Assembly (NCBI GenBank): GCA_036387315.1
Contig: DASVTY010000012.1
Location: 1,408-65,407 of the forward strand
Length of the DNA: 64,000 bases
DNA from: Pyrinomonadaceae bacterium
GTDB taxonomy: Bacteria; Acidobacteriota; Blastocatellia; Pyrinomonadales; Pyrinomonadaceae
Reading direction: 5' to 3'
Part shown: positions 5,548-41,617 of the stretch, piece by piece
Layout of the letters: each line of letters starts with the position of its first letter
How positions within the stretch are numbered: the stretch's first letter is position 1
Made by a program: the position numbers and the translations under genes
The notes under the pieces: generated by a model
What the model saw: only the letters and a program-made list of their open reading frames with translations
Database searches by the model: none
Told to the model about the DNA's origin: nothing

Positions 5548-8307
5548 TCAAACAATTCTTTTCTGCAATTCGAGCATATAATCGCGCAATTGTTCGGCTG
5601 AAAAGTTTTCTACTTTTGTTTGCTTTAATTCTTCAATCAAAGTTTCGTTGGCGGTTTGAAACAAAGTCGTCTGCATCGCCATTCGACCGCGAGCGGCGCG
5701 TCTGACGGCGGAATTCAAACCGTTTGATTCGCTCTGCGGAGTTTGTTTTTGTTCGACGACATCCGCGAAAACATCAATTTCGTATCGTTCGAGCCGTTCC
5801 AAAACTTCGCGCGCGCGGGCGATAACTTCAGGCGGCAAACCGGCAAGCCGCGCCACCGCGATTCCGTAAGATTTTGTCGCCCTCCCGCATTCGAGCTTGT
5901 GTAAAAAAACGACTTCGCCGCCGCGTTCCGAAGCCGTAATTTGATAATTTTGCGAGCCGGGAAGACGTTCGGCTAATTCGGTAAGCTCGTGATAATGCGT
6001 GGCGAAAAGCGTTTTTGCGGCGTGTTCCGAAGAATCATGCAGAAATTCGGCGACCGACCAGGCGATTGAAAGCCCGTCGAATGTCGAAGTCCCGCGCCCG
6101 ATTTCATCGAGCAGAACGAGCGAGCGCGGCGTCGCATTGTGCAAAATCGCCGCCGTTTCGGTCATTTCGACCATAAAAGTCGAACGACCGGAGGCAAGAT
6201 CGTCAGACGCGCCGACTCGCGTCCAAACGCGGTCAACAATCGGCAATTTTGCCTGGCGAGCGGGAACGAAAGAGCCGATTTGCGCGAGAATTTGAATAAT
6301 CGCCGTTTGCCGCAAAACCGTAGATTTTCCGCCCATATTCGGTCCGGTGATAATCAGCAAACGGTCGGTCGAGTTATTCAAATACAAATCGTTCGGGACA
6401 AACGGCTCGCTTAAAAACGCTTCAACGACCGGGTGCCGCCCGTCTTTGATTTCGATTTCGTCACCGTCGTGCAAAACCGGGCGGACAAAATTTCGGCGCG
6501 AAGCCGTTTCCGACAAAGCCGCAAGCGAATCTAACGTCGCGAGCGCACGCGCAGTAGTTTGCAAATTTTTTGTTTCCTGCGCGACAGTTGCACGAATTTG
6601 TCCGAACAACTCAGTTTCGATTTCCAAAATTCTTTCTTCCGCGCCTAAAATTTTGCGTTCCCATTCTTTAAGCTGCGGCGTCGTGAAACGCTCGGCGTTA
6701 ACCAAAGTTTGACGCCGTTCGTAATCGTCAGGCACGCGCGATAAATTTGATTTTGAAATCTCGATAAAATAGCCGAAAACGTTATTGAATTTGACTCGCA
6801 GACTGGCGATTCCCGAACGGCGTTTTTCGTTTTCTTCAAACTGAGCGATGGTTTGTTTCGCGTCGCTGCTTAAATTTCTCAATTCATCAAGCTCTACATT
6901 AAATACGTCACGAATCGCGCCCCCATCGGAAATGTTCAAAGGCGGATTTTCCGAAATTGCGGTTCTGATTAAATCTTTGATTTCGGGTAATTCAAAAATA
7001 TTATCGTGAAGAACCTGAAGCAGAGAGCTGGATGCGTCCGATAACGACTTTTTGAGATTTGGAACTTGATTGAGCGAGCGCGATAGAGCGAGCAAATCGC
7101 GCGGCGTCGCAGTGTTCATATTAAGGCGTCCAATCAAACGCTCCAAATCCGAAATTTCTTTGAGCGAAACGCGCAATCGGTCGCGCAAAATCGAATCGCA
7201 TAATTCTTCGACAGCCGTTGCGCGAGCTTCGATTTCGCCGCGCCTGATCGAAGGACGCAAAAGCCACGATTTTAAAAGCCGCGAACCCATATTTGTGACG
7301 GTTTGGTCAATCACACCGAATAATGTGCGGCGTTTGTCCGAGCCGCTTTGCGGTTCGGCGATTTCGAGATTTCGGAGCGTCACGGCGTCCAAAATCATAA
7401 ACTCATTCGCCTCGAAATAATTGAGGTCGGCGATGTGCGCGGCTGCGGCGCGCTGTGTTTCTTGCACGTAGCGCAAGGCGGCTCCGGCGGCGCGGACAGC
7501 TTGCGTTTTTTCGGTCAAACCGTAACCGTCGAGCGATTGGACGGCGAAATGAGTTTTTAACAAACCTTCGCAATAATCGTCGAAAAACAGCCAATCATCG
7601 AGCGGCGTCAGCGTGGCGGAAAATCCGGTCTGCTCGTTTTTCGTCGGGAAAGGAACTACGTTGTCAATTTTGGATTTTGGATTTTGGATTTTGGATTCTT
7701 CACTTGATTTTTCGGCGATGTTTGAGGTTACAAAAGAATCCTTGATTAAAGCAGTCAGAGATTCCGGGTAGAGAATTTCGCGTGGAGCGAATGATTCTAT
7801 GTCGGCGCGGAGAGTTTTCCAACTGTCTTTGCCGCGACACTCGGTCGCGCGAAACTCGCCGGTGGATAAATCGAGAAACGCCGCGCCGAACGCTTCGCCC
7901 GCCCCGCAGACGGCGGCGAGATAAACCGAATCTTTGGTTTCGAGAAGCTGTTCGTCAATCGCAGTGCCGGGCGTGATAATGCGGGCGACTTCGCGGCGAA
8001 AGGTTTTTTTGTTCCCGACGCCTTCTTCAATTTGCTCGCAGACGGCGACGCGATAGCCTTTTCGGACGAGCTTGGCGATGTAGCCGACGGCGGCGTGATG
8101 CGGAATTCCGCACATCGGAATCGGGTTTCCGCGGTCTTTGCCGCGCGCCGTGAGAACGATTTCCATTTCGCGCGCGCCCGTTACGGCGTCGTCAAACAAC
8201 AGCTCGTAAAAATCGCCGCAGCGGAAAAACAAAATCGTGCCGGGAAATTTCTGTTTTAATTCGTGATATTGCCGAAGCATCGGCGTTCCGGGATTTGCAG
8301 CTTCCAT
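5548..8307 (-). CDS. mutS: DNA mismatch repair protein MutS
   Basis: 919 aa. N-terminal TPMLRQY..K..PG.ILFFR.GDFYE, Walker A GPNMGGKST and C-terminal region all match MutS. Confidence 0.95.
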   Translation of the reverse strand: MEAANPGTPMLRQYHELKQKFPGTILFFRCGDFYELLFDDAVTGAREMEIVLTARGKDRGNPIPMCGIPHHAAVGYIAKLVRKGYRVAVCEQIEEGVGNKKTFRREVARIITPGTAIDEQLLETKDSVYLAAVCGAGEAFGAAFLDLSTGEFRATECRGKDSWKTLRADIESFAPREILYPESLTALIKDSFVTSNIAEKSSEESKIQNPKSKIDNVVPFPTKNEQTGFSATLTPLDDWLFFDDYCEGLLKTHFAVQSLDGYGLTEKTQAVRAAGAALRYVQETQRAAAAHIADLNYFEANEFMILDAVTLRNLEIAEPQSGSDKRRTLFGVIDQTVTNMGSRLLKSWLLRPSIRRGEIEARATAVEELCDSILRDRLRVSLKEISDLERLIGRLNMNTATPRDLLALSRSLNQVPNLKKSLSDASSSLLQVLHDNIFELPEIKDLIRTAISENPPLNISDGGAIRDVFNVELDELRNLSSDAKQTIAQFEENEKRRSGIASLRVKFNNVFGYFIEISKSNLSRVPDDYERRQTLVNAERFTTPQLKEWERKILGAEERILEIETELFGQIRATVAQETKNLQTTARALATLDSLAALSETASRRNFVRPVLHDGDEIEIKDGRHPVVEAFLSEPFVPNDLYLNNSTDRLLIITGPNMGGKSTVLRQTAIIQILAQIGSFVPARQAKLPIVDRVWTRVGASDDLASGRSTFMVEMTETAAILHNATPRSLVLLDEIGRGTSTFDGLSIAWSVAEFLHDSSEHAAKTLFATHYHELTELAERLPGSQNYQITASERGGEVVFLHKLECGRATKSYGIAVARLAGLPPEVIARAREVLERLERYEIDVFADVVEQKQTPQSESNGLNSAVRRAARGRMAMQTTLFQTANETLIEELKQTKVENFSAEQLRDYMLELQKRIV
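7668..7697. repeat. Perfect tandem heptanucleotide repeat (TTTTGGA)x4 (TCCAAAA on the coding strand) inside mutS
   Basis: Read directly: ttttgga x4 followed by tt. It encodes ..ESKIQNPKSKI.. in a linker-like insertion after MutS domain I. Confidence 0.95.
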
Positions 8308-8512
8308 TTTCTTTTCGCTTTACGATTCTTAAAGATATAAGGTGATTGCAGGAATTCAAAATTTAGAATTGATTTGGCTGAAATGCAAGCGTCGGAAAGC
8401 GATTTTTATTGCTCCCGGTTTGCTTTAGGCGGTAAAATTACGGTATTTTTTAATACGCGCAGAGAAATTTCTCAACCGTTTAAACGCTCAATCCTAAAAA
8501 GAGGTAAATGCA

Positions 8513-9587: not shown

Positions 9588-11999
9588 ATGCAAGAACGCC
9601 GTGAAATCATTCCGACAATTCAGCCGGAAAAATCGGAGATACAACGTAACGCCATCGAAGTTAAGCTTCCGGCTGCCGCCGAGCCTTACCGGAATTATCG
9701 CGGAGCCGCCGCAGCCGAAGAAGGCATTCGCATTTTGGATTACTGGCGGGCGATTCGCAAACGTTTGTGGCTCGTTATCGGCATCGCGGTTTTGATGACG
9801 ACGTTGGCGGCGATTTATATGTCGCGCCGACCGGACGTTTACGAAGCGCATTCGCGCGTGCAGGTGGATCTTGAGCAGGTTAACCCCGATTTGGTCGCCA
9901 GCGACCGGCGCGCCCCCGTCGTTAGCGATCCGTCTTATTTCAACACGCAGCTTCAAAACTTAAACAGCCCGACTTTGCTGCGCCGTGTCGTCAAAGAACT
10001 CGATCTGGAGAACAACAAAGATTTTATGAACCCGAAATCGGAGGAATCGCGCTCGCCGCTCCGCTCGATTTTGCGTTCAATCGGTTTAGCCAGCCCGGAA
10101 AAGAAACGCGACTCAAACGCCGTTCCGGTTTCGACCAACACGCAGGCGGAAAACATCGAAGATATGGCAGAGGCGAAACGCCTCGCGCCGTTTGTTGACA
10201 CGCTACAGAGAAAATTGGTTATCGAGCCGGTGCGAGAAGTCCGCGCTGCGCAAAAAGAAACCCGTTTGATTAGCATCTCTTTTCAACATACAAATCCCGA
10301 TTTAGCGGCTCTGATTGTCAACGGCGTGGCTGCGACTTTTGTCAGAGCGAATCAGGAGAAGAGAACCGGCAAAAGCGGAGAAACCAGCAAGTTTTTGCAG
10401 GAACGAGTCGCCGAATTACAGGCGGAAGTCAAACGAGATCAAGAGCTGCTCGTTAAATTAAAACAAACCTCGAATATTTTAGAGTTTGAAAATGAAAAAA
10501 CTCTTGCCGGTGAACAGCTACAAGGCTTAAACAAGCAGCTTTTGGATGCCTCGAACCTTCGCAAGGCGACGGAAGCCGAATATAATGCCGCAAAACAACC
10601 GGAATCATTATTGGCGCTGACGGAAGACAGCGACGCGCGAAGAGTAATTGATGATTTGCAGCTTGAAATCGCGCGAACTCAAAAAGAAAGAGAACGCCTT
10701 CTGCTCGAATACACTCCGGAAGCGCCGGAAGTTCTGGAGAGGGATAAAGAAATCGAAACGCTGGGCAGAAAACTCGAAGATTACCGCAAACGCAATCAGG
10801 GTAATCTACTGCTCAATCTAAAAAGCCGATTTGAACGCGCACGTAATCAGGAAGCGAAAATAAAAGCCGAATTCGACCGTCAATACAATCTCGCGCAGGG
10901 ACAGAATAAAGCGGGAATTGACATTACTATTTTGCAGCAGCGGCTCGATAACAATAACAATCTGTTGAACAATTTGTTCAAACAACAACGCGAAAACGAT
11001 GTCCAAGCCGTCGGAACCGGAAACAACGTTTCGGTTGCAGATGTCGCCATCACGCCGGAAGACCCGATAGGACCGCGCCGTTTATTATCGGTCATGATGG
11101 CGTTTATGATGTCGCTCGTTTTCGGCTGCGGCTTGGCGCTGTTTCTCGAATATCTCGACGACACGGTGCGGACGACCGAAGATGTCGAAAACATCCTGCG
11201 GCTTCCCGCTCTGGCTGTTATTCCGACGATTGACACGGCTCAGAAACGCAAACTTTTGGCTGCGGGCGCGGGAGGTGAAAACCAAAACAATCCGGGACGT
11301 TCCGAATTGCTCATCAGCAACGATTCGCGCTCGGCTTTAGCCGAAGCATATCGCCAGCTTCGCACTTCGATTTTGCTTTCAACCGCCGGACACGCTCCGA
11401 AATCGCTTTTGGTGACATCGAGCGTTCCGAGCGAAGGCAAAACAACGACCGCCGTCAACACGGCTATCAGTCTGGCGCAAACCGGAGCCAAAGTTTTGAT
11501 TATTGACGCGGATATGCGCCGCCCGCGTCTGCACGGAATTTTTCAGGTTTCCAACGAACACGGTTTAAGCTCGATTTTGTCGAGCCAGATGGAAGAGGAC
11601 GAGATGCTGGATATTATTCAGCACGACGACGAATCGAATCTTTATCTGCTGCCGTCGGGCGCGGTTCCGCCGAATCCTGCGGAATTGATCGGTTCGGATC
11701 AAATGTCCCGGATGCTCAAAATTATGGAAGCGAATTTTACGCACGTCGTCGTAGATTCGCCGCCGATTGCGTCGTTTACCGACGGCGTTTTGATTTCGTC
11801 AATGGTTGACGGCGTTTTGCTCGTCGTTCATTCCGGCAAATCATCACGACAAGTTATCAAGCGCGCCCGTCAATTGCTCGGCGAAGTCGGGGCAAAACTG
11901 TTCGGCGTCGTTCTCAACAACGTCAATCTGCGCTCTCAGGATAATAATTATTATTATCAAAATTACTATAGCTCTTACTACAATCGAGACGAGGAATAA
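9588..11999 (+). CDS. Polysaccharide co-polymerase / BY-kinase, Wzc/GumC-like
   Basis: N-terminal Wzz-like TM plus long coiled coil. C-terminal P-loop domain with Walker A SEGKTTT, A' IIDADMRRP and B VVDSPP. C-terminal Tyr cluster NNYYYQNYYSSYY. Confidence 0.85.
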   Translation: MQERREIIPTIQPEKSEIQRNAIEVKLPAAAEPYRNYRGAAAAEEGIRILDYWRAIRKRLWLVIGIAVLMTTLAAIYMSRRPDVYEAHSRVQVDLEQVNPDLVASDRRAPVVSDPSYFNTQLQNLNSPTLLRRVVKELDLENNKDFMNPKSEESRSPLRSILRSIGLASPEKKRDSNAVPVSTNTQAENIEDMAEAKRLAPFVDTLQRKLVIEPVREVRAAQKETRLISISFQHTNPDLAALIVNGVAATFVRANQEKRTGKSGETSKFLQERVAELQAEVKRDQELLVKLKQTSNILEFENEKTLAGEQLQGLNKQLLDASNLRKATEAEYNAAKQPESLLALTEDSDARRVIDDLQLEIARTQKERERLLLEYTPEAPEVLERDKEIETLGRKLEDYRKRNQGNLLLNLKSRFERARNQEAKIKAEFDRQYNLAQGQNKAGIDITILQQRLDNNNNLLNNLFKQQRENDVQAVGTGNNVSVADVAITPEDPIGPRRLLSVMMAFMMSLVFGCGLALFLEYLDDTVRTTEDVENILRLPALAVIPTIDTAQKRKLLAAGAGGENQNNPGRSELLISNDSRSALAEAYRQLRTSILLSTAGHAPKSLLVTSSVPSEGKTTTAVNTAISLAQTGAKVLIIDADMRRPRLHGIFQVSNEHGLSSILSSQMEEDEMLDIIQHDDESNLYLLPSGAVPPNPAELIGSDQMSRMLKIMEANFTHVVVDSPPIASFTDGVLISSMVDGVLLVVHSGKSSRQVIKRARQLLGEVGAKLFGVVLNNVNLRSQDNNYYYQNYYSSYYNRDEE

Positions 12000-18508: not shown

Positions 18509-18562
18509 TTGTCAAATGGAAAGTTAAATTCGCATAATATATGCGATGGGAGCAAGCGAATT

Positions 18563-19231
18563 ATGATTGCCGTTGAATCATTACAGGCGGAAAATCGCGT
18601 CGTCAAATCTGTTTTGCACGCTTTGGCTGAGGAAGGCTTGGTTACAGTCGTCGGCGAGGACGAAGAAGAGATGAGCGAAACGACTCTGCATTTTGAATTG
18701 GTAAATTATTTGTTCAACGCTCTCAAGCTGTTTTTCGCCGAGCGCGAAAACGTTTTCGTCGCTTCCAATCTGCGAATCTCATACGATCCGCAAAATCCGC
18801 TTAAATGGTTTGCGCCGGACGTTTTGGTTGCTTTCGAGACGGCGAACCGAGAGCGTTCGAGCTACGATTTAAAAACCGAAGGGCAAATGCCGCAGGTTGT
18901 CTTTGAAATCTCCAGCTCGCAAACAGCTTATAAAGATATGGGCGAGAAATATAATATTTACGCCCGGCTCGGAGTCGAAGAATATTATTTGCTCGACCCG
19001 GAGCGCAATCTGCTTCCCGACACGCTGATGGCTTATCAACGCAAAGGCGGTAAATTGCTGCCGGTGGAAATTCAAAACGGGCGCGTTTTCAGCCCGCAAC
19101 TCGGTTTGGAAATTGTGGACACCGGCGCTCAATTTCGACTTTTCGATTCAAAAAACAATGATTTCTTGCGCTCGCCAGAGGAAACAGCCGCCAGGCTTGC
19201 CGAGCTTGAAGCCTTACTCAAACAAAAATAA
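18563..19231 (+). CDS. Uma2-family (DUF820) putative restriction-type endonuclease
   Basis: ..H..L...L...L...F.......V.SN..I.Y.........APDV.V......R..Y......G..P..V.EI.S.....D...K...YA..GV.EY...DP. ATG at 18563 with a gggag SD is preferred over the TTG at 18509. Confidence 0.75.
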   Translation: MIAVESLQAENRVVKSVLHALAEEGLVTVVGEDEEEMSETTLHFELVNYLFNALKLFFAERENVFVASNLRISYDPQNPLKWFAPDVLVAFETANRERSSYDLKTEGQMPQVVFEISSSQTAYKDMGEKYNIYARLGVEEYYLLDPERNLLPDTLMAYQRKGGKLLPVEIQNGRVFSPQLGLEIVDTGAQFRLFDSKNNDFLRSPEETAARLAELEALLKQK

Positions 19232-22421: not shown

Positions 22422-23990
22422 ATGAAATCCGGCTTCGACCAAAAAACCGCGTTTTGGCGCGATAAAATCGAAACGCGAGACCTGATATTTTTTATTATCG
22501 GCTGCGTTTTTATTTATCTGCATCTTTTCGCGCTCCCTGCGACGCCGATTTTTTACGAAGAAGACCATCTTTATTTTGTCCACGACGCCTGGCGAATGTA
22601 CGAAGGCGAAGCGATTTATAGAGATTTTTTTCAGTTGATGTTTCCCGGCGGGCAGGTTTTATATCTGCTCCTGTTTTACATTTTCGGCACGAAGTTTTGG
22701 CTCATCAACGCGGTGATTTTTCTTCAAGCCTCCGCCCACGTTTTGCTCGCTCTGGCAATTTCAAAACGTATTTTCGGCTCAAGCTGGTACGCATATTTGC
22801 CGCCGAGCCTGTATTTGTTTTTCGGATTCCGGTGGTTCGGAATTGACGGAACGCACCGTGTTTTAAGCCCGATTTTTATTTATCTGGCGATTTTTATCCT
22901 GCTCAAAAACAGAAACCTTAAAAGGCTTATTGTCGCTGGCGCATTGTGTGGCTTTGCCAGTTTTATCACTCAGCAGCGGGGCGTTCTGGCAGTCGGCGCA
23001 ATCGCGGTTTTTCTGCTTTATGAAGCCTTTAAAAACAGAAAACTTGGGAAAGACTTTCTTGTCGCCGAACTCGTTTTGCTGGTTTCATTCGGTTTAACTC
23101 TGACAATTTTAATTTTGCCTTTTATCATTTCTGCCGGACCGCAAACTTTTTTTGACTACACTTTTTTCTTTATCAGAAATTACGTTCAGGATTCGACCGG
23201 AAATTATCTTTCTTATTTCAACAACGTCAGGAAAATCTTCGAGCAGGGATTTTTATTTTCCGCCGTCACGATCTTTTACTGCGCTCTGATTCCGCTCGTT
23301 TATCTGATTTCATTTTTTTATCTGTGGCGGAAGAAGGACAATTCGGACATAAAAGCCAAAAGCGAGATTTTTTTGATTTCGCTCGTCGGATTGTTCCTGA
23401 CTTTGGGAACGTTTGCGCCGAATCCGTACAGATTTTTCCAAATCGCAATTCCGGCTTTGATCGTTTTGGTCTGGCTGATTTCTCAGCTTAAAATAAAATC
23501 CGAATCGGTAATTCGCGCTGCCGTCGCGGGGCTAATAATTTTGGGAATGGCACTGGCGTTTCGGCTGCAAACAAATTGGGAAAAAAATATTTTGGCGGCG
23601 CGCACCGGAAACATCGCGTTTCTTTCGCCGGTCGTTCTTGAGCGTTACAAATGGTTGTCGGAAAACACAGTAGAAAACGAATATGTTTTTGAAGTTTATC
23701 AATGCGCGGTTAATTTTGTTTTGCAATTAAGAAACCCGACACAAGTGACTTTTTTGTTAAATACGGGCTACACTCCCGTTTGGCAGGTAACACAATCAAT
23801 AGAAAATTTGGAGCGGAAAAAACCGAGATTCATTATCTGGGACGGAGCTTGGACGAGGGAATTGGAGACAATCGAAGAAGGCGAGCATTTGGGACCGCTT
23901 TATGATTATTTGCGGCAGAATTACGAGCTAAAAAAAGAGTTTACGCCTTACAACAATCGTGAAATGCAATTATGGGAAAGAAAACAATAA
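22422..23990 (+). CDS. Polytopic membrane protein, GT-C-like (ArnT/PMT-type) glycosyltransferase candidate
   Basis: 522 aa with more than 10 predicted TM helices. Acidic first loop (..YEEDHLYF..) and a soluble C-terminal domain. Family assignment is tentative. Confidence 0.45.
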   Translation: MKSGFDQKTAFWRDKIETRDLIFFIIGCVFIYLHLFALPATPIFYEEDHLYFVHDAWRMYEGEAIYRDFFQLMFPGGQVLYLLLFYIFGTKFWLINAVIFLQASAHVLLALAISKRIFGSSWYAYLPPSLYLFFGFRWFGIDGTHRVLSPIFIYLAIFILLKNRNLKRLIVAGALCGFASFITQQRGVLAVGAIAVFLLYEAFKNRKLGKDFLVAELVLLVSFGLTLTILILPFIISAGPQTFFDYTFFFIRNYVQDSTGNYLSYFNNVRKIFEQGFLFSAVTIFYCALIPLVYLISFFYLWRKKDNSDIKAKSEIFLISLVGLFLTLGTFAPNPYRFFQIAIPALIVLVWLISQLKIKSESVIRAAVAGLIILGMALAFRLQTNWEKNILAARTGNIAFLSPVVLERYKWLSENTVENEYVFEVYQCAVNFVLQLRNPTQVTFLLNTGYTPVWQVTQSIENLERKKPRFIIWDGAWTRELETIEEGEHLGPLYDYLRQNYELKKEFTPYNNREMQLWERKQ

Positions 23991-25198
23991 GCGAGCTGGG
24001 AATAGTCGAAGAAAAATTGGCGGCTTCTCAAAACGGAAAATCGGAGATTGAATTGTCGGTCGTAATGCCCTGTCTGAACGAAGCCGACACGCTGGAGGTT
24101 TGTCTGCAGAAAGCCGGTCGCGCGATGCGGGAACATGACATAAAAGGCGAAATCATTGTCGCCGATAACGGCAGCACCGACGGTTCAATCGAAATTGCCC
24201 AGCGAAACGGCGCGCGCGTCGTTCACGTCAAAGAAAAAGGCTACGGCAGTGCTTTGATGGGCGGAATCGAAGCCGCGCGCGGCAGATTCGTGATTATGGG
24301 CGATGCCGATGACAGCTACGATTTTCTCGAAATTCCGAAATTTGTCGAAAAGCTGCGCGAAAATTACGACCTCGTTCAGGGATGCCGCTTGCCTGGCGGC
24401 GGCGGACAGGTTTTGCCCGGAGCGATGCCTTTTCTGCACCGCTGGTGGGGAAATCCGATGTTTTCCAAAATGGTGCGGCTCTGGTTTAACGCGCCGATTA
24501 ACGACACTTACTGCGGACTTCGGGGTTTTACGAAAGCGCATTACAACAGTCTCAATCAACGTTGCACCGGAATGGAGTTTGCGACCGAAATGATTATCAA
24601 ATCGAGCCTGTTCAAGGCGCGAATCGCCGAAGTTCCGATTACTTTGCACCCGGACGGGCGAAAATCGCACCCACCGCATCTGAAAACTTTCCGCGACGGC
24701 TGGCGGACACTGCGCTTTTTTCTGATGTACAGCCCGCGCTGGCTGTTTCTCGTGCCGGGATTTTTGCTGATTCTTCTTGGCGCGGTCGGTTATTTTGTCG
24801 GTTTGACGGGAACTTCGGTCGGGCGTGTGACTTTCGGTTTGCATACGGTTTTGTTCGGCAGTTTGGCGATTTTGTGTGGATATCAATCAATTTTGTTCGC
24901 CATCTTCACCAAAACTTTCGCTATCAGCGAAGGACTGATGCCGGAAGACCCGCGATTAACCAGGTTTTTTGAAATCGCCAATCTTGAACGCGGTTTAATT
25001 CTGGCGGGCGGGGTTTTGTTGATCGGCTTGATTTTGCTGCTGATCGCCGTCAATCAATGGCGTTTAGCCGGTTTCGGCGTTTTGGATTATGCTTATACGA
25101 TGAGTTTCGTCATTCCCGGCTCGACGCTCGTCGCGCTGGGTTTTCAAACGATTCTTTCGGGATTTTTTGTGAGTATTTTGGGAATGAAGCGAAAATGA
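23972..25198 (+). CDS. GT2 polyprenyl-phosphate glycosyltransferase-like (GtrB/ArnC/Dpm1-like) with C-terminal TM helices
   Basis: ..SVVMPCLNE..IIVADNGSTDGS..GYG.A...G......G..IMGDADDSYD. Four hydrophobic C-terminal helices. Confidence 0.75.
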   Translation: MGKKTISELGIVEEKLAASQNGKSEIELSVVMPCLNEADTLEVCLQKAGRAMREHDIKGEIIVADNGSTDGSIEIAQRNGARVVHVKEKGYGSALMGGIEAARGRFVIMGDADDSYDFLEIPKFVEKLRENYDLVQGCRLPGGGGQVLPGAMPFLHRWWGNPMFSKMVRLWFNAPINDTYCGLRGFTKAHYNSLNQRCTGMEFATEMIIKSSLFKARIAEVPITLHPDGRKSHPPHLKTFRDGWRTLRFFLMYSPRWLFLVPGFLLILLGAVGYFVGLTGTSVGRVTFGLHTVLFGSLAILCGYQSILFAIFTKTFAISEGLMPEDPRLTRFFEIANLERGLILAGGVLLIGLILLLIAVNQWRLAGFGVLDYAYTMSFVIPGSTLVALGFQTILSGFFVSILGMKRK

Positions 25199-25890
25199 AA
25201 TTAACAGAATTGCGCGATACCTCAGAACTAACCGGAGAGCAGATTCAGGATTTTTGGGAGGAAGCCTACACCAGATTTGAAACGCCGGAGCAGGAAATCC
25301 GAAAATTTATTGGTCGGCTTAACACTCTCGGACAAGCCGAATGGCGGCGCGACGCGCAGATTGTTGATATTTTTAGCGGGCGTTGTAACGGAATCCGGGC
25401 TTTGGAACAACTCGGATTTACGAATTTGGAAGGCGTGGACATTTCGCCGAACCTGCTTTCGCAATACGACGGGACAGCCAGACTTTACACGGCGGATTGC
25501 CGCGATTTGCCGTTTTCGGACGAAAGCCGCGACATCATCATCGTGCAGGGCGGACTTCACCATTTGCCCGAATTACCGAAGGATTTAGATCGAACTTTAG
25601 GTGAAATTCGCCGCGTTTTGCGCCCCGACGGGCGTTTTGTGATGGTGGAGCCTTGGCAGACGCCTTTTTTGCAATTGATTCATTTTTTGAGCGAGCGGAA
25701 AACGGTTCGCGCCGTTTCAAATAAATTCGACGCTTTTGCTACAATGACGCATTACGAGCGTGACACTTATTTTCGCTGGCTCGGCAAATCCGGTGAAATT
25801 ACGGCTTTATTAAAGCGGCATTTTGACGAATTGTATCTGCGAAAAACGTTTGGAAAATTGTTTTTCGTGGGAAAAAAGCGAACGGTTTAA
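25195..25890 (+). CDS. Class I SAM-dependent methyltransferase
   Basis: Internal ATG at 25195 overlaps the upstream stop (ATGA). ..VDIFSGRCNG..VDIS..DIIIVQGGLHHL..LRPDGRFV. Confidence 0.75.
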   Translation: MKLTELRDTSELTGEQIQDFWEEAYTRFETPEQEIRKFIGRLNTLGQAEWRRDAQIVDIFSGRCNGIRALEQLGFTNLEGVDISPNLLSQYDGTARLYTADCRDLPFSDESRDIIIVQGGLHHLPELPKDLDRTLGEIRRVLRPDGRFVMVEPWQTPFLQLIHFLSERKTVRAVSNKFDAFATMTHYERDTYFRWLGKSGEITALLKRHFDELYLRKTFGKLFFVGKKRTV

Positions 25891-35566: not shown

Positions 35567-36397
35567 ATGCAATTTATCGTGAGTCAAGATTTACCGTTTG
35601 GTTTTGCATTCAGCTCATACGGAGTTTCAATCGAAATTCGCACAAATCGGTTCGATTTATTAACCGAAATTGAAAATTTGCTGCCGCCCGCAAGCCGCAT
35701 CCTCTCAAGAGGAAAACCGATTGATTTTTTATTTGCGGTAATTTGGGACGATGAAAGAGAACGAATCAGCGAATTTTATCGCAATTCGGAGCAGCAGGCT
35801 TGCGACGGCGATTACTCGCAATCGCTGCATTTGATCGAAATCGCTTTGCGATTGACAGTCGCGGAATTTTCGCCGCATCTGGTTTTCGTTCACGCCGGAG
35901 CGGTCGCATTTGAAGATTCGGCTGTAATCGTTCCCGGAAGAAGCCGCGCAGGGAAAACGACATTGACCGCAGCTTTGGTGCAAAACGGGGCTGTTTATTA
36001 CTCGGACGAGTATGCGATCTTTGATGAATTCGGCTTTTTGCATCCGTTTCCGAAGCCGCTTTCCGTGAGAGAGCCTTGGGCGTTTGGAAAACAGATTGAT
36101 CAATCGGTTGAAACGTTCGGCGGGCGACAGGGAACAAAGCCGATTAAAGCGAAAGCAATCGTTGTGACCGAATATGAAAAGGATGCACGTTGGCAGCCGG
36201 AGCGATTGAGCAAGGGAGAAGGCGTTTTAGAACTGCTGGCAAACACGGTTTCGGCGCGGACGAATCCTCGGCTGGCATTAAAAATCTTGCCTCGCGCCGT
36301 AGAAAATGCTTTAATTTTGAAAGGTAAAAGAGGAGACGCCGAAGCGGTTTCCAAAGAAATTAAAAAAGTTTTGACAAAAAACGCGATTTTCGCTTGA
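35567..36397 (+). CDS. HPr-kinase C-terminal-domain-like P-loop protein (HprK-related kinase)
   Basis: ..VFVHAGAVAFEDSAVIVPGRSRAGKTTLTAALV..GA.YYSDEYA.. resembles the HprK catalytic core with Walker A GxxxxGKT (nt 35936-35959). 276 aa. Confidence 0.65.
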   Translation: MQFIVSQDLPFGFAFSSYGVSIEIRTNRFDLLTEIENLLPPASRILSRGKPIDFLFAVIWDDERERISEFYRNSEQQACDGDYSQSLHLIEIALRLTVAEFSPHLVFVHAGAVAFEDSAVIVPGRSRAGKTTLTAALVQNGAVYYSDEYAIFDEFGFLHPFPKPLSVREPWAFGKQIDQSVETFGGRQGTKPIKAKAIVVTEYEKDARWQPERLSKGEGVLELLANTVSARTNPRLALKILPRAVENALILKGKRGDAEAVSKEIKKVLTKNAIFA

Positions 36398-36456
36398 AAA
36401 AGTTCGATAAATAAACTAAAAACTATACTGCTTTTGATTGTTTGAGGAGGAAAAGA

Positions 36457-37002
36457 ATGCAAAATTTACAAAAACCGGTTGCTCGACACGAAGGACTGGT
36501 CGTTCAGGAAATGCCCGATGAAGTGTTGGTTTACGATTTAAACACAAATAAGGCTCACTGTTTAAATAAATCTGCCGCCGCTGTGTGGAAAAATTGTGAC
36601 GGCAGCAATTCAATTTCTGATATTGCCGCAATTCTAAAAAATGAATTTAAAACACCGGTCAGCGATGATTTTGTCTGGCTGGCAATCGATCAGCTCGGCA
36701 AAGATGAATTGCTCGAGCAAAAATTAACCGCACCTACCAATGGTTTAACGCGCCGCGAAGCTATGCGCCGCGTTGCGCTGGCTTCGTTGGTTGCTCTGCC
36801 GGTTGTCGCTTCATTGACCGCGCCGACTGCGGCACAAGCAGCCAGCGTTTGTTCGAACGCGGGCGCTGCCTGTACTTGTTCGAGCACTAACAACGGCGCT
36901 TTTGCTATAACTTGTCCCGGATCATTTACAGGATGCACCGGAGCTTGCGCTTGCAACAATATCCAACCGGGTTCAAATCAGGGAGTCTGTCAGCAAGCCT
37001 AA
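36457..37002 (+). CDS. PqqD/RRE-like domain fused to a Tat/Sec-signal-like hydrophobic segment and a 53-aa Cys-rich C-terminal peptide
   Basis: gaggagg SD 6 nt before the ATG at 36457. The N-terminal roughly 90 aa (..VVQEMPDEVLVYDLNTNKAHCLNKSAAAVW..CDG..S...I...L....) are PqqD-like. Then TRREAMRRVALASLVALPVVASLTAPTAAQA, then ASVCSNAGAACTCSSTNNGAFAITCPGSFTGCTGACACNNIQPGSNQGVCQQA. Confidence 0.7.
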   Translation: MQNLQKPVARHEGLVVQEMPDEVLVYDLNTNKAHCLNKSAAAVWKNCDGSNSISDIAAILKNEFKTPVSDDFVWLAIDQLGKDELLEQKLTAPTNGLTRREAMRRVALASLVALPVVASLTAPTAAQAASVCSNAGAACTCSSTNNGAFAITCPGSFTGCTGACACNNIQPGSNQGVCQQA

Positions 37003-37052
37003 TTTGAATTAAATTCTAAACAGCGTATGTTGTAAACGAATGCGCTGTTTTT

Positions 37053-37931
37053 ATGAGTAACGGTTCGCAGCAGGAAAATTTATTTCAATTGATGACGAAG
37101 GTGCAGGCGGAGAGAATCCGCCGCGCCTTCGTTTTTTTTCGTGAACACGAAATCGAGCCGGTTCTGATCAAAGGCTGGGCGATTGCGCGTTTTTATCCGA
37201 ACCCCCGCGAGCGTTTTTCCGCCGACATGGACTTGGCGGTTAATCCCGATGTTTTTCCAAAAGCGCTCGAATTAAAAAATCGTCATTTGAGCGGCAAATT
37301 GCCGATTGACCTTCATTGCGGTTTGGGGCAATTCGACAACCTTTCATTTGAAAATTTGTTTGAAAATTCCCGGCTCGTCGAATTGACTGACACAACAGTC
37401 CGGGTTTTGCGCCACGAAGACCATTTGCGCTTATTAGCGGTTCACTGGCTGCGCGACGGCGGTATTTTCAAGCAGCGTTTGTGGGATATTCATTATGGTT
37501 TGAAAAACCGCCCGGCGGATTTCGATTGGGACAGATTTTTAGAAACAAACGGCGAAAAGCGACGCAAATGGATTATCGCGGCAATTGCCGTCGCTCATCG
37601 CTACACCGACCTGAATGTTGAAGACACGCCGATAGCCGAAGAAGTGAAAAATCCCCGGCTGATTCCGAAATGGATGCTGCGAACGCTGGAAAAAGAATGG
37701 AACGATCCGATTAAGTTTATGCCGCTTGAACAAGTGATGAACGACCGGCGAGAAGTTTGGCGGCAGTTAAAAAAAAGATTTCCGCCCAACCCTTTGGTCG
37801 CTTCGCTTTACGCAAACGCGCCTTTAAACAATTTTCCCCGGCTGCCTTATCAAATTATTAATATTTTCCAACGAGTAATGCCTTCAATCAATCGAACGAA
37901 ATCGCAGCTTCAATCAAAAATAAAGAAATAG
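37053..37931 (+). CDS. Uncharacterised nucleotidyltransferase family protein (NTP_transf_5-like)
   Basis: ..EIEPVLIKGWAIARFYPNPRERFSADMDLAV.. matches the remembered KG-x-Y-x-R-x-D-x-DLLV pattern of this family. 292 aa. Confidence 0.6.
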   Translation: MSNGSQQENLFQLMTKVQAERIRRAFVFFREHEIEPVLIKGWAIARFYPNPRERFSADMDLAVNPDVFPKALELKNRHLSGKLPIDLHCGLGQFDNLSFENLFENSRLVELTDTTVRVLRHEDHLRLLAVHWLRDGGIFKQRLWDIHYGLKNRPADFDWDRFLETNGEKRRKWIIAAIAVAHRYTDLNVEDTPIAEEVKNPRLIPKWMLRTLEKEWNDPIKFMPLEQVMNDRREVWRQLKKRFPPNPLVASLYANAPLNNFPRLPYQIINIFQRVMPSINRTKSQLQSKIKK

Positions 37932-40532: not shown

Positions 40533-40808
40533 ATGGAAGACGAGAAAAAAAAGAGTTTAACCAGAAAAGTTGCGAGAGCGGGCGGCTGGCAGGTCGCCAA
40601 GCGTTTGATTAAGCCTTTGCCTTTTGTTGGAACGGCTTTAGCCATCGGTTTGACGGGCTATAGCATCAAGAAAAAAGGGTGGATCAGAGGCATCGCTCAC
40701 TCGGCTTTGGATGCGACGCCAATCGTCGGAACGGCGAAAAACGTCGTCGAGCTATTTACCGGCGATATAATCCCGGATAAGCCGGACTTAGAGGGGAAAA
40801 AACGATGA
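40533..40808 (+). CDS. Hypothetical small membrane protein
   Basis: ATG at 40533 after a ggagg. One or two hydrophobic segments (..LPFVGTALAIGLTGY..). ATGA-coupled to the next gene. Confidence 0.4.
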   Translation: MEDEKKKSLTRKVARAGGWQVAKRLIKPLPFVGTALAIGLTGYSIKKKGWIRGIAHSALDATPIVGTAKNVVELFTGDIIPDKPDLEGKKR

Positions 40809-41617
40809 AGATTTTTTCGGGGATTTTAACGTTAATAGTTTTGCTTGGAGCCTTTGTTTTTGCCGCCGAAGCGCAAACTCAGCGGCGGAAAAAAACAACC
40901 CGCCGCGCAAATAATACGACGATTAGACCGCAGTTGAATAATTCGGCGCAGATTATTGAGCCGGAAATCGTCAGCACGGCTGAAGAAATCGAAAATCAGG
41001 AAAACGGCGGGAAAATGATCGTCAATCCTTCGCCCGGAAGACGCGAAACGGGAAACGGAAAACAAACCGTTGCGCCAAATGCGAATCAATCAAACGCTTC
41101 GCGGAGCAGCGCGGCTTTACAGCTTGAAGTAAATACGCTGCGTGAGCAGGTAAAAGCTCTGCGCGAAAAAAGCGGCGTTGAAGATTTGGAAAAGCTCAGC
41201 GTCGCAGAAGAGCGGGCTGATAATTTCCGGCGAAAATTGGAAGAGACACTCGCGCGCGAATCGGACTTAAACGCCAAAATGCAGCAGCTTGAATATCAAG
41301 CGAGACCGGAAGCGATTCAACTCGATACAGCCGTTATCGGTTCGACGCGCCCCGAAGAAGTTCGCGAAACGCGCCGCAAAATACTTGAAGCAGAAAAAAC
41401 GCGGTTGCGCGAGCAAATTAATCAAGTGCAAATCACCCGCGCCAGGCTCGAAACAGCGATAGCCAACGCCGACTCGCTGGTGGAAAAATTACGCGCCCGC
41501 GTAGAAGCTGACCTCTACGTTACAGATTCGAAAACGATTAAATCTAAAGATGCCGGGCAAAAGCAGCCGGAAAGAACCGAGCCAACCGACGACGAAGATT
41601 CAAATCCGCCATTTTAA
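40805..41617 (+). CDS. Hypothetical secreted coiled-coil protein
   Basis: Signal peptide MKIFSGILTLIVLLGAFVFAAEA, a low-complexity N-terminal region, then a long heptad-like E/R/L/Q-rich segment. Confidence 0.55.
   Translation: MKIFSGILTLIVLLGAFVFAAEAQTQRRKKTTRRANNTTIRPQLNNSAQIIEPEIVSTAEEIENQENGGKMIVNPSPGRRETGNGKQTVAPNANQSNASRSSAALQLEVNTLREQVKALREKSGVEDLEKLSVAEERADNFRRKLEETLARESDLNAKMQQLEYQARPEAIQLDTAVIGSTRPEEVRETRRKILEAEKTRLREQINQVQITRARLETAIANADSLVEKLRARVEADLYVTDSKTIKSKDAGQKQPERTEPTDDEDSNPPF

Follow-up and report, generated by a model that had tools for sequence, protein, structure and literature searches.

A PqqD-like domain, an internal twin-arginine signal and a hypervariable cysteine-rich tail in one predicted bacterial pre-protein

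Why would a bacterial protein have what looks like a complete signal peptide behind a folded domain? The question arises from a gene at 36457..37002 of a 64,000-nucleotide stretch of DNA from a Pyrinomonadaceae bacterium, which we will call the window. (All coordinates are those of the window, and all of the features that we describe are on the + strand.) The gene encodes 181 amino acids plus a stop codon, and the chain has three parts: a PqqD/RRE domain that resembles the B1 proteins of lasso peptide clusters, a 32-residue internal twin-arginine module, and a 53-residue tail with eight cysteines. A first-pass annotation had offered three readings of this arrangement: a membrane protein with a periplasmic tail, a precursor with an RRE in cis that is cleaved at AQA/A, or two nested products from one reading frame. 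Its open reading frame, the sequence at the junction of the module and the tail (...GLTRREAMRRVALASLVALPVVASLTAPTAAQA and then ASVC...QQA), the in-frame ATG at 36763, and the positions of the eight cysteines were all exactly right. Two details needed correction. The peptide that it placed at 36748 begins at 36742 (36748 is the Thr of TRRE), and the tail has 11 Ser/Thr and 7 Gly, instead of 13 and 8.

The start codon is ATG 36457, which is preceded by a Shine-Dalgarno sequence (GAGGAGG, 36444..36450, read directly from the sequence), so the protein has 181 amino acids. The TTG at 36442 is not the start codon. The nearest database protein, from a Pyrinomonadaceae MAG, is 98% identical and is named "PqqD family protein." Downstream of the stop codon and before the next gene's ATG, RNA folding finds a hairpin followed by U5 (37018..37050; dG = -13.9 kcal/mol, z-score = -2.75). 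This hairpin was not called by a simple terminator scan, and it is possibly an attenuator.

A profile search found 8,327 representatives of 50%-identity clusters at E <= 1e-3, and 1,236 at E <= 1e-30. We checked the three-part architecture in the best 150 of the 8,327 representatives. Every intact homologue that we examined (about 330) has this architecture, each time with a single open reading frame for both RRE and tail. The members of these clusters are named only "hypothetical protein" or "PqqD," and our literature search found no description of a protein with an RRE, a twin-arginine signal, and a Cys-rich tail. The family appears to be both very large and undescribed.

The first 95 residues (36457..36741) comprise the PqqD/RRE domain and a linker, and are predicted to be cytoplasmic. 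The RREs that are known are separate proteins or parts of enzymes, and they bind the leader peptide. As the first-pass annotation proposed, the domain is PqqD-like: residues 22-67 match PF05402 from Pfam with 33.4 bits, which is above the gathering cut-off of 23.4 bits. The AlphaFold2 model has strands at residues 14-18, 22-27, and 32-37 and helices at 38-46, 53-64, and 70-82, which is the winged-helix fold of RREs. The top matches from Foldseek are the lasso B1 RREs 5v1u and 5v1v (E = 1e-4, target TM-score of 0.72-0.74) and 6jx3, and PqqD (5sxy) is also among the top matches. The domain is 40% identical to BsfB1, a lasso B1 RRE partner of the kinase BsfK, across 47 amino acids. It evolves slowly, with dN of 0.009-0.03 and dN/dS of 0.03-0.07.

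The gene is the second in a cassette of three, which lies at the end of a polysaccharide locus. The first gene (35567..36397) encodes a 276-aa P-loop kinase that is similar to HPr kinase. Its best match in NCBIfam is TIGR04352 (HprK_rel_A; E = 1.3e-16), at 60.6 bits. This is below the cut-off of 200 bits, so the kinase is not a member of TIGR04352. It does have the catalytic His, the P-loop (GxSGxGK[ST]), and the acidic pair of the HPr kinase superfamily. According to BLASTP, it is 32% identical to the lasso kinase BsfK over 73 amino acids across the catalytic core (His, GRSxAGK[ST], D[DE]), and its VHAG...PGRSRAGKTT...YSDE aligns to H148, G163, K169, S170, D186, and D187, which are listed as the catalytic residues of BsfK (PMC10368454). 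The third gene (37053..37931) encodes a 292-aa nucleotidyltransferase of the NTP_transf_5 family (PF14907; 64.9 bits vs. a gathering cut-off of 31.2). Of 89 loci, 75 have the kinase directly beside the RRE gene, and 77 have the nucleotidyltransferase beside it. Both enzymes are relatives of the tailoring enzymes of lasso peptides. (When we searched the PDB by sequence with the family's profile, the kinase, and the nucleotidyltransferase, we found only marginal or chance matches.) In the HPr-rel-A system as well, a kinase of the same superfamily (TIGR04352) is paired with a PqqD-family protein, but the window's RRE protein does not match that system's PqqD model at E <= 0.1. Our literature search found no paper on the HPr-rel-A system.

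Some members of the family lack these neighbors. The kinase is absent near the RRE gene in L026, L035, L039, and L041, which have full-length flanks, and in L085, which is on a 1-kb contig. Neither enzyme is encoded nearby in L070, L082, or L086; in L090, neither is upstream, and the contig ends just downstream of the RRE gene. (For the distant classes, the gene context comes from a small number of individual loci, and several of these, such as L085, L087, and L089, are on contigs that are too short to be informative.) Since there are members without the kinase or without both enzymes, recruiting them cannot be the RRE's sole role.

The internal signal module, LTRREAMRRVALASLVALPVVASLTAPTAAQA (residues 97-128, 36745..36840), has the same length throughout the family. 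It consists of a twin-arginine n-region, a 17-residue h-region with an invariant Pro, and a c-region of the form P-x-x-A-x-A. Across 323 unique sequences, the distance from the RR to the AxA is fixed, and R-30, R-29, P-14, and P-6 are 100% conserved (numbered from the predicted cleavage site). Other positions are nearly as constant: G-22 (93%), A-16 (91%), Val or Ile at -12 (99%), and A-1 (96%). The invariant arginines (R99 and R100, 36751..36756) are part of a Tat-like motif, [ST]-R-R-x-[VA]-[IL]-[KR], which is found in 198 of 205 sequences, and the invariant Pro (Pro115, 36799..36801) is midway along the h-region. From -23 to -1, the sequences have no charged residues, except for sporadic ones at -8, -5, -4, and -2, of which most are at -5. 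In a broad alignment, the module is more conserved than the core of the RRE, and its dN is about 0, as compared to a dS of 0.3-1.0. The very high conservation of the h-region exceeds what a generic signal peptide needs and could reflect a lasting role in the membrane.

This conservation bears on the idea of nested products, in which the gene would give the full-length protein and also a separate 79-aa pre-peptide that starts at the internal ATG (36763..36765; Met103, position -26). That ATG is in frame, and MRRVALASL...AQA followed by A would pass as a normal signal peptide. But as the first-pass annotation had itself remarked, there is no Shine-Dalgarno sequence before it (the upstream sequence is ...CGCGCCGCGAAGCT), and the ATG is not a conserved start: at this position, the family has Ile in 66% of sequences, Leu in 14%, Val in 10%, and Met in just 8%. 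The shorter product would lose the upstream R-30 and R-29 and the [ST]RRx[VA][IL] motif, and purifying selection (dN ~0) spans the whole module, including the part that is 5' of the ATG. With the RRE and the tail always in one open reading frame as well, nested products seem scarcely credible.

If the module is an export signal, as its sequence suggests, then the Tat pathway is more likely than Sec. The first-pass annotation had called the signal Tat/Sec-like, and the Tat motif is matched well. Besides the match to the S/T-R-R-x-F-L-K type of motif with its invariant RR, Ala, Ser, and Gly are abundant in the h-region, which is long and moderately hydrophobic (the mean Kyte-Doolittle score is 2.21, as compared to 2.65 for an ordinary Sec signal nearby), and the c-region has A-x-A, in many cases with a basic residue at -5. 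The differences from usual Tat signals are that this one is not N-terminal (it begins at residue 97, behind a folded domain) and that the cargo is tiny and Cys-rich, with no cofactor motif. Tat signals do include internal or uncleaved signal-anchors, such as those of Rieske proteins. None of the genome's Tat genes are within the window.

The module ends with A-Q-A (36832..36840), where we predict that signal peptidase I would cleave after Ala128. Across the family, position -3 is Ala (70%), Val (15%), Ile (4%), or Ser (3%), and position -1 is Ala (96%), Gly (2%), or Ser (1%). Between these small and neutral residues, position -2 is bulky (Leu, Met, Gln, or His). The invariant Pro at -6 is a helix breaker, as expected before a signal peptidase I site, and none of 332 sequences has Pro at +1. 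Gln is at +1 in 20% of the sequences. We also considered whether this could be the signal of a bacterial lipoprotein, and we rejected this idea. The window's sequence is A-S-V-C, and the lipobox ([LVI][ASTVI][GAS]C) does not allow Val at its -1 position. Across the family, only 56% of sequences have a Cys at +4 and 24% have one at +3, so there is no invariant lipobox Cys. Lipidation of the first Cys would also leave an odd number of cysteines, which speaks against a lipoprotein.

The predicted cleavage site is also where close relatives cease to be similar. The window's cassette and that of a close relative (L008) have 95-100% nucleotide identity, but the identity is only 63-68% in the stretch that begins exactly at the predicted +1 codon and runs through the gene's end. 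In the tail, dN is 0.29-0.42 and dN/dS is 0.12-0.42. We did not find any dN/dS above 1, so we did not see positive selection, and the raised dS of the tail fits better with the exchange of a segment than with selection on point mutations. Another locus (L092) has the same synteny as the window, yet its protein has an unrelated tail with 12 cysteines. The best explanation for these patterns is that the tail-coding segment diversifies or is swapped between strains, while the RRE and the signal are nearly fixed. We considered a diversity-generating retroelement as the source of the variation, and rejected it: there is no reverse transcriptase gene among the window's open reading frames that we scanned, and the differences include indels. 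Together, Pro at -6, Ala or Val at -3, Ala at -1, a bulky residue at -2, and a Pro-free +1 in about 330 diverged sequences, with divergence from the +1 codon onwards, make the cleaved precursor the best supported of the three readings in the first-pass annotation.

The chain could instead remain uncleaved. It would then be a single-pass membrane protein, N-in/C-out, with the RRE as an adaptor that holds both enzymes at the membrane, by the polysaccharide machinery. The hydrophobic segment would be a true transmembrane helix that packs on partner proteins, and the tail would be a disulfide-bonded ectodomain, variable because it is exposed at the surface. The hydrophobic segment and the c-region together have 23 residues, which is enough to cross the membrane; the segment is conserved beyond the core of the RRE; and G-22, A-16, and P-14 occur with small residues in a spacing that suits helix packing. 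The genomic setting fits as well, as the cassette is found at polysaccharide loci in several arrangements (in the window, in L003/L004, and in L088, where it is beside Wza/Wzc). On the other hand, a simple membrane anchor would not require P-6 to be invariant, nor would it require small residues at -3 and -1, variable bulky residues at -2, or a Pro-free +1. It also would not account for the sharp boundary at +1 or for the frequency of Gln there, which is typical of mature N-termini. We view an uncleaved protein as possible, though rather unlikely.

The topology also recalls one-component membrane regulators, which have a cytoplasmic winged-helix-like domain, one transmembrane segment, and a small ectodomain that contains cysteines. 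The protein might be a membrane-tethered regulator, similar to ToxR/CadC or to an anti-sigma factor, whose Cys-rich ectodomain senses redox state or a ligand and whose winged-helix RRE domain signals in response, which would control the polysaccharide genes. In some distant members of the family (L086 and L090), the neighbors do include an ECF sigma factor or a regulator of the OmpR type. However, the domain resembles peptide-binding RREs, not DNA-binding or anti-sigma domains, and the conserved partners are enzymes, not transcription factors. Also, a sensor domain is not normally swapped for an unrelated fold among close relatives. A regulator seems quite improbable.

This leaves the tail itself (36841..36999), which is the predicted mature peptide. 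Its cysteines are at tail positions 4, 11, 13, 25, 32, 36, 38, and 50 (C-6-C-1-C-11-C-6-C-3-C-1-C-11-C), with Ser at +2, and in an alignment of its subclass (20 sequences), all eight cysteines and Ser2 are invariant. AlphaFold2's model of the tail alone is a compact fold with beta strands (pLDDT = 93.6, pTM = 0.72). The tail has no match in Pfam, and when we compared the model to the PDB with Foldseek, we found no fold match (best E = 3). More broadly, the family's tails are hypervariable, with lengths of 25-118 amino acids and 215 patterns of Cys spacing. The first-pass annotation had proposed to compare the tail and its Cys pattern across orthologues. The tail is present in every orthologue, and the cysteines are invariant within subclasses, but the framework changes between subclasses. 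Ser or Thr is at +2 or +3 in 292 of 323 sequences, as compared to about 35% expected from the composition of the tails. Acidic residues are nearly absent from the family's tails (D 1.5%, E 0.7%), and the window's tail has none.

The number of cysteines is even in 323 of the 332 unique tails, and most of the nine exceptions look frameshifted. Such even counts suggest that the cysteines pair as disulfides and do not form thioethers. The first-pass annotation had suggested a lanthipeptide-like or other thioether chemistry. Such a peptide (lanthipeptide-, sactipeptide-, or ranthipeptide-like), or else a metal-binding one (similar to metallothioneins or bufferins), would suit the composition of the tail, in which Cys, Ser, Thr, and Gly are abundant and charged and aromatic residues are very scarce, and precursors of RiPPs with signal peptides and modified cysteines are known, such as the bufferins (PMC11626156). 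But even counts are predicted by disulfide pairing and not by thioethers or metal sites, and a confident, compact beta fold is predicted for the tail. Also, the window's open reading frames that we scanned include no gene for LanB/C/M, a radical-SAM enzyme, an MNIO enzyme, or DUF2063. Thioether or metal chemistry is disfavored, and we consider it very unlikely. The bufferins and the DUF2282 precursors, with their MNIO and DUF2063 RRE partners, do share some features with this family: a ribosomal peptide with cysteines, a general signal peptide, action outside the cytoplasm, and an RRE-type protein. In those systems, though, the signal is N-terminal, the RRE is a separate protein, and the cysteines are converted by the MNIO enzyme. 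Here, the signal is internal, the RRE is fused upstream of it, the window's scanned open reading frames include no MNIO gene, and the parity of the cysteines suggests disulfides.

The disulfide-rich toxins of animals are another point of comparison. Conotoxin superfamilies and knottins (from cone snails and spiders) have a conserved signal or pro region and a hypervariable Cys-rich mature peptide that begins at the processing site. They resemble this family in having even Cys counts and frameworks that are conserved within classes, and some of the family's tails have the C-C-CC-C-C framework (P0159, P0171, P0214, P0258, P0264, and P0269). The tail of P0159 weakly matches the conotoxin and knottin models in Pfam (E = 6e-4, below the threshold). 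When we scanned ten diverse tails against Pfam, we found nothing except for sub-threshold conotoxin/knottin matches for one knottin-like tail. These are bacterial proteins, however, and the likeness does not imply toxicity. The window's tail does not fit a knottin (inhibitor cystine knot): its own 8-Cys framework (C6C1C11C6C3C1C11C) is not C-C-CC-C-C, and it has no match in Pfam or the PDB.

The closest parallel may be with phosphorylated and phosphoglycosylated lasso peptides. The systems for paeninodin (PadeK), pseudomycoidin (PsmK/PsmN), and the Bradymonas peptide (BsfK/BsfB1/BsfN) have in common with the cassette a B1-like RRE of the discrete type, a peptide kinase that is homologous to HPr kinase, and a nucleotidyltransferase as neighbors. 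BsfK phosphorylates its core peptide at Ser3, a reaction that the RRE BsfB1 strongly stimulates (PMC10368454), and the nucleotidyltransferase of the pseudomycoidin cluster attaches hexoses to the phosphate (PMC8498205). The lasso leader's motif, YxxPxL, covers -17 to -12, with Pro at -14 (PMC10368454). The family's modules have Val or Ile at -17 (93%), Pro at -14 (100%), and Val or Ile at -12 (99%), which puts the invariant Pro in the same register; we noticed this match post hoc, and aliphatic residues are expected in h-regions. The conserved Ser/Thr at +2/+3 and the kinase's retained catalytic residues are further likenesses. The differences are extensive, however. The family's signal modules lack the Tyr(-17) and Thr(-2) of lasso leaders (which can also have Ile or Val at -2). 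To form its macrolactam, a lasso core has Gly, Ala, Ser, or Cys at position 1 and Asp or Glu at 7-9; here there is no Gly1 and no acidic residue at those positions. Substrate and RRE are in one chain, a hydrophobic twin-arginine signal that ends in a signal peptidase site takes the place of the leader, and the product would be a disulfide-rich domain of 25-118 amino acids instead of a lasso of 15-25. We found no B2 leader protease (transglutaminase-like) or C cyclase (asparagine-synthetase-like) among the window's open reading frames that we scanned or among the called genes of L001, L003, L004, L088, and L092, and there is no ABC exporter in the cassette. Given the lack of B2 and cyclase genes, and of any acidic residue in the window's tail that could form a macrolactam, we rejected a lasso peptide.

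Overall, our best explanation, which we favor at somewhat better than even confidence, is that the gene encodes a pre-protein with a recognition domain in cis and a tail that is exported, cleaved, rich in disulfides, and possibly phospho-modified at Ser +2/+3. The N-terminal RRE would remain in the cytoplasm, as a built-in domain for docking or for holding back the chain. It might bring in the kinase and the nucleotidyltransferase, or it might bind the leader-like segment of its own chain (the hydrophobic residue at -17, Pro at -14, and Val/Ile at -12). The conserved Ser/Thr at +2/+3 would possibly be phosphorylated by these enzymes, and a sugar or nucleotide would possibly be added next; the phosphorylation step is modeled on BsfK, which acts on the core's Ser3 with help from its RRE. 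The twin-arginine signal would then take the tail through the inner membrane, with Tat as a likelier route than Sec, signal peptidase I would cut after AQA, and the 53-aa tail would fold with four disulfides.

Some observations count against this explanation. A signal behind a folded domain (here, 95 amino acids) is unusual for both Sec and Tat, and the normal route for disulfide-rich peptides is Sec with Dsb enzymes, not Tat. Also, in AlphaFold2's model of the monomer, the signal segment is not docked onto the RRE, and the pLDDT is just 45-52 for residues 99-129.

A bolder proposal, which is speculative and on balance unlikely, is that the family is a large undescribed class of bacterial ribosomal peptides. 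The RRE would be fused in cis to its own substrate, and the twin-arginine signal would double as the leader that the RRE binds, which would keep the chain in the cytoplasm. A kinase and a nucleotidyltransferase of lasso origin would phospho-glycosylate Ser at +2/+3. Tat export of the modified peptide and cleavage by signal peptidase I would then release it, hypervariable and knotted by disulfides, to act on the cell surface or within the matrix of polysaccharide. If this is true, then the peptides might have roles in, for example, strain-specific competition, recognition, or the assembly of the matrix.

The family would also explain part of a gap in annotation: in a recent survey, 21% of PF05402 proteins exceeded the length of a discrete RRE and had no other annotation (PMC12710340). 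With thousands of cluster representatives at E <= 1e-3, and with hundreds of distinct disulfide frameworks (some of them knottin-like) among the members that we examined, the family is a rich source of bacterial mini-proteins, most of which come from uncultured Acidobacteriota of soil. The family connects lasso-type tailoring enzymes with polysaccharide loci, and it is a concrete case for asking if Tat serves natural modified peptides. An RRE that lies within the substrate's own chain, upstream of the export signal, would be a new way of coupling recognition, modification, and secretion.

An open reading frame at 36442-37002 (+) was confirmed in the window. Its start codon is likely the ATG at 36457, which lies eight bases past a GAGGAGG Shine-Dalgarno sequence and gives a protein of 181 amino acids. 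A PqqD domain (PF05402) scores above the Pfam threshold over residues 22-67, and a Kyte-Doolittle scan found a sole hydrophobic stretch, at about residues 101-132. The first-pass annotation had quoted the peptide that follows the PqqD-like domain, an in-frame ATG at 36763, and the positions of eight cysteines in the tail, all of which held up when we re-read the sequence; its counts of 13 Ser/Thr and 8 Gly in the tail should be 11 and 7.

In a full-length AlphaFold2 model (from a 95-sequence alignment), residues 14-82 adopt an RRE fold with three strands and three helices (pLDDT about 80). A helix at residues 99-113 and a low-confidence segment come next, and the tail is confidently modelled as beta-rich. 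Modelled alone, from 20 sequences, the tail has a pLDDT of 93.6 and a pTM of 0.72. The top structural matches of the N-terminal domain are structures of the lasso-peptide B1 RRE TbiB1 (5v1u/5v1v; E 1e-4, target TM-score 0.72-0.74). Another lasso B1 RRE, 6jx3, is among the best matches, and PqqD itself ranks after. The 53-residue tail had no match in Pfam and no fold match in the PDB. Within the RRE domain, which is predicted to be cytoplasmic, Cys35 (36559-36561) and Cys47 (36595-36597) lie in the motif AHCLN...WKxCDG; Cys47 is invariant and Cys35 is at least 90% conserved, whereas BsfB1 (the RRE of the Bradymonas bsf lasso-peptide cluster) and other discrete RREs lack both. The pair may constitute a redox site or bind a metal.

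A word-indexed search found 1,670 family proteins. An exhaustive profile search recovered 8,327 cluster representatives (clustered at 50% identity) with E ≤ 1e-3; at E ≤ 1e-30, the number was 1,236. In a pattern-limited scan of genomes, the genomes of 268 species contained the family; 80 loci were listed from that scan, and almost all of these are from Blastocatellia-type Acidobacteriota MAGs (Pyrinomonadaceae, Chloracidobacterium). The window is 98-99% identical to Pyrinomonadaceae MAGs. Every intact member that we examined has the RRE-signal-tail layout, and in databases the members go under the names "PqqD family protein" or "hypothetical." Some loci have two complete paralogues with different tails, either flanking the nucleotidyltransferase gene or in tandem (L001, at 8001-8480 and 9692-10174; L036; L075).

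The signal module is highly conserved. We computed residue frequencies from 323 unique sequences, and in all 323 the twin arginine and the A-x-A motif are separated by the same number of residues. Counting from the predicted signal peptidase I site AQA|A (Ala128 is -1 and Ala129 is +1), the arginines at -30 and -29 and the prolines at -14 and -6 are found in 100% of sequences, Val/Ile at -12 in 99%, Ala at -1 in 96%, Gly at -22 and Val/Ile at -17 in 93% each, Ala at -16 in 91%, Ser at -10 in 89%, and Ala at -7 in 86%. Position -3 is Ala (70%) or Val (15%), position -2 is bulky and variable, and none of 332 unique sequences has Pro at +1. In a broad alignment, column identity is higher for the signal module (0.51-0.59) than for the RRE core (0.48), and the tail has the lowest (0.27). 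As a Sec-signal contrast to the twin-arginine module, we used the 270-residue protein at 40805-41617 (+), whose signal (MKIFSGILTLIVLLGAFVFAAEA|Q) is of the ordinary Sec type and which also has a long region resembling a coiled coil. Cleavage at AQA|A is probable, and we lean slightly towards Tat rather than Sec as the export route.

Family tails range from 25 to 118 amino acids, with 215 distinct cysteine spacings. The number of cysteines is even (4 to 24) in 323 of 332 unique tails, and most of the nine odd ones show an evident frameshift or truncation. Cys, Gly, Ala, Thr, Ser, Asn, and Pro are abundant, and charged and aromatic residues are nearly absent. Some tails have the knottin framework C-C-CC-C-C, and one of these weakly matches conotoxin models. 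The window's tail is a duplicated C-xn-C-x-C-x11-C unit; in its subclass, all eight cysteines and the Ser at +2 are invariant. Very probably, the tail is extracytoplasmic and disulfide-bonded.

Between the window and close relatives, dN is 0.009-0.03 for the RRE, about 0 for the signal module (where dS is 0.3-1.0), and 0.29-0.42 for the tail. Compared to L008, a close relative, nucleotide identity is 95-100% across the cassette. It drops to 63-68% in the alignment windows from 36840 up to the gene's end, and is back at 98% in the intergenic sequence directly after the stop codon; the tail's dS is about eight times that of the RRE. The first tail codon is 36841. The sharp edge of the mosaic falls on the predicted +1 codon and marks a functional boundary between leader and core. 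The sharp drop in identity and the raised synonymous divergence suggest that tail segments are exchanged between lineages as well as mutated. In a related genome, the RRE gene (L092, 2583-3194) has an unrelated 75-residue, 12-Cys tail within the same gene order (Glycos_transf_4, kinase, RRE gene, NTP_transf_5, HhH-GPD glycosylase, and ABC ATPase).

Upstream of the RRE-tail gene is a P-loop protein (35567-36397) whose best NCBIfam match, HprK-related kinase A, is below the model's cut-off; downstream is an NTP_transf_5 nucleotidyltransferase (37053-37931). The kinase adjoins the RRE gene in 75 of 89 loci, and the nucleotidyltransferase does in 77 of 89. A subset of loci has the nucleotidyltransferase without the kinase, and two (L070 and L082) have neither. 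Two genes with long tails, of 14 and 18 cysteines (L086, 6001-6672, and L090, 6001-6729), have neither enzyme in their readable flanks. The neighbors are an ECF sigma factor and a Ser/Thr-kinase-WD40 protein in L086, and an OmpR-type TPR regulator with beta-helix and S74-peptidase proteins in L090, whose contig stops just downstream of the gene. In the window, a hairpin (37018-37050 (+); dG -13.9 kcal/mol, z-score -2.75), followed by U5, lies directly after the RRE-tail stop codon and ends two bases before the nucleotidyltransferase's ATG. A simple terminator scan did not call it. Possibly, it acts as an attenuator that tunes the ratio of precursor to enzyme, favoring expression of the precursor over that of the nucleotidyltransferase.

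Lasso-peptide tailoring enzymes include HPr-kinase homologs, which phosphorylate the precursor, and nucleotidyltransferases; that of pseudomycoidin puts hexoses onto the phosphate (PMC8498205). BsfK, from the bsf cluster, phosphorylates Ser3 of the core and is strongly stimulated by BsfB1, and the leader motif YxxPxL spans -17 to -12 (PMC10368454). We translated the published bsfB1 and bsfK genes and compared them to the window's proteins. The window's RRE is 40% identical to BsfB1 over 47 amino acids, and its kinase aligns with BsfK through the catalytic His, the P-loop, and the acidic pair. Like YxxPxL, the family's signal has its invariant Pro at -14, with Val/Ile at -17 and -12; this match in register, which we spotted post hoc, is suggestive. 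Also, 90% of sequences have Ser/Thr at +2 or +3, versus about 35% expected from composition. Modification of the RRE-tail protein by the neighboring enzymes is a tentative possibility. Binding of the RRE to its own signal segment is slightly more doubtful, and AlphaFold2 did not dock the segment onto the RRE. Among the window's ORFs that we scanned, there were no genes for a lasso protease, a lasso cyclase, or lanthipeptide, radical-SAM, or MNIO enzymes.

The cassette closes a 27-kb Wzx/Wzy-type polysaccharide locus (8513-35421, +), which encodes Wza, Wzc, epimerases, UDP-glucose dehydrogenase, several GT2/GT4 glycosyltransferases, a flippase-like protein, GDP-mannose dehydratase, a SIS and cytidylyltransferase protein, and a PfkB kinase. 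In other genomes, the cassette is beside Glycos_transf_4/GT4 genes or immediately before Wza/Wzc (L088). In the main rival explanation, which we consider less likely, the protein would stay uncleaved and serve as a bitopic adaptor at the polysaccharide machinery. SAM-methyltransferases are encoded by at least five separate genes of the locus, suggesting that its glycan is heavily methylated. A putative restriction endonuclease of the Uma2 family (18509-19231 (+)) sits mid-locus, between methyltransferase genes. A GT2 glycosyltransferase ORF (23972-25198 (+)) overlaps a methyltransferase ORF (25057-25890 (+)) by about 140 nt in a different frame; the true methyltransferase start codon probably lies further downstream.

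As a whole, we modestly favor a chain in which the RRE would remain in the cytoplasm, the twin-arginine signal would carry the tail across the membrane, signal peptidase I would cleave after Ala128, and four disulfides would form in the tail. Acting in cis, the RRE could dock the kinase and nucleotidyltransferase, bind its own leader-like segment, or do both, and Ser130 (+2) might be phospho-modified by these enzymes. Nested-gene, thioether, lipoprotein, and lasso readings were rejected or seem unlikely.

A 2025 survey of RREs listed long PF05402-only proteins as unexplored (PMC12710340). We found no description of an RRE with an internal twin-arginine signal and a Cys-rich core in the literature that we covered, which was incomplete, so an earlier description is possible. 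The individual parts are known, and their combination appears to be new: a single chain runs from an RRE through a near-invariant, internal twin-arginine signal to a hypervariable core rich in disulfides, and is encoded beside tailoring enzymes of the lasso type, without lasso machinery.
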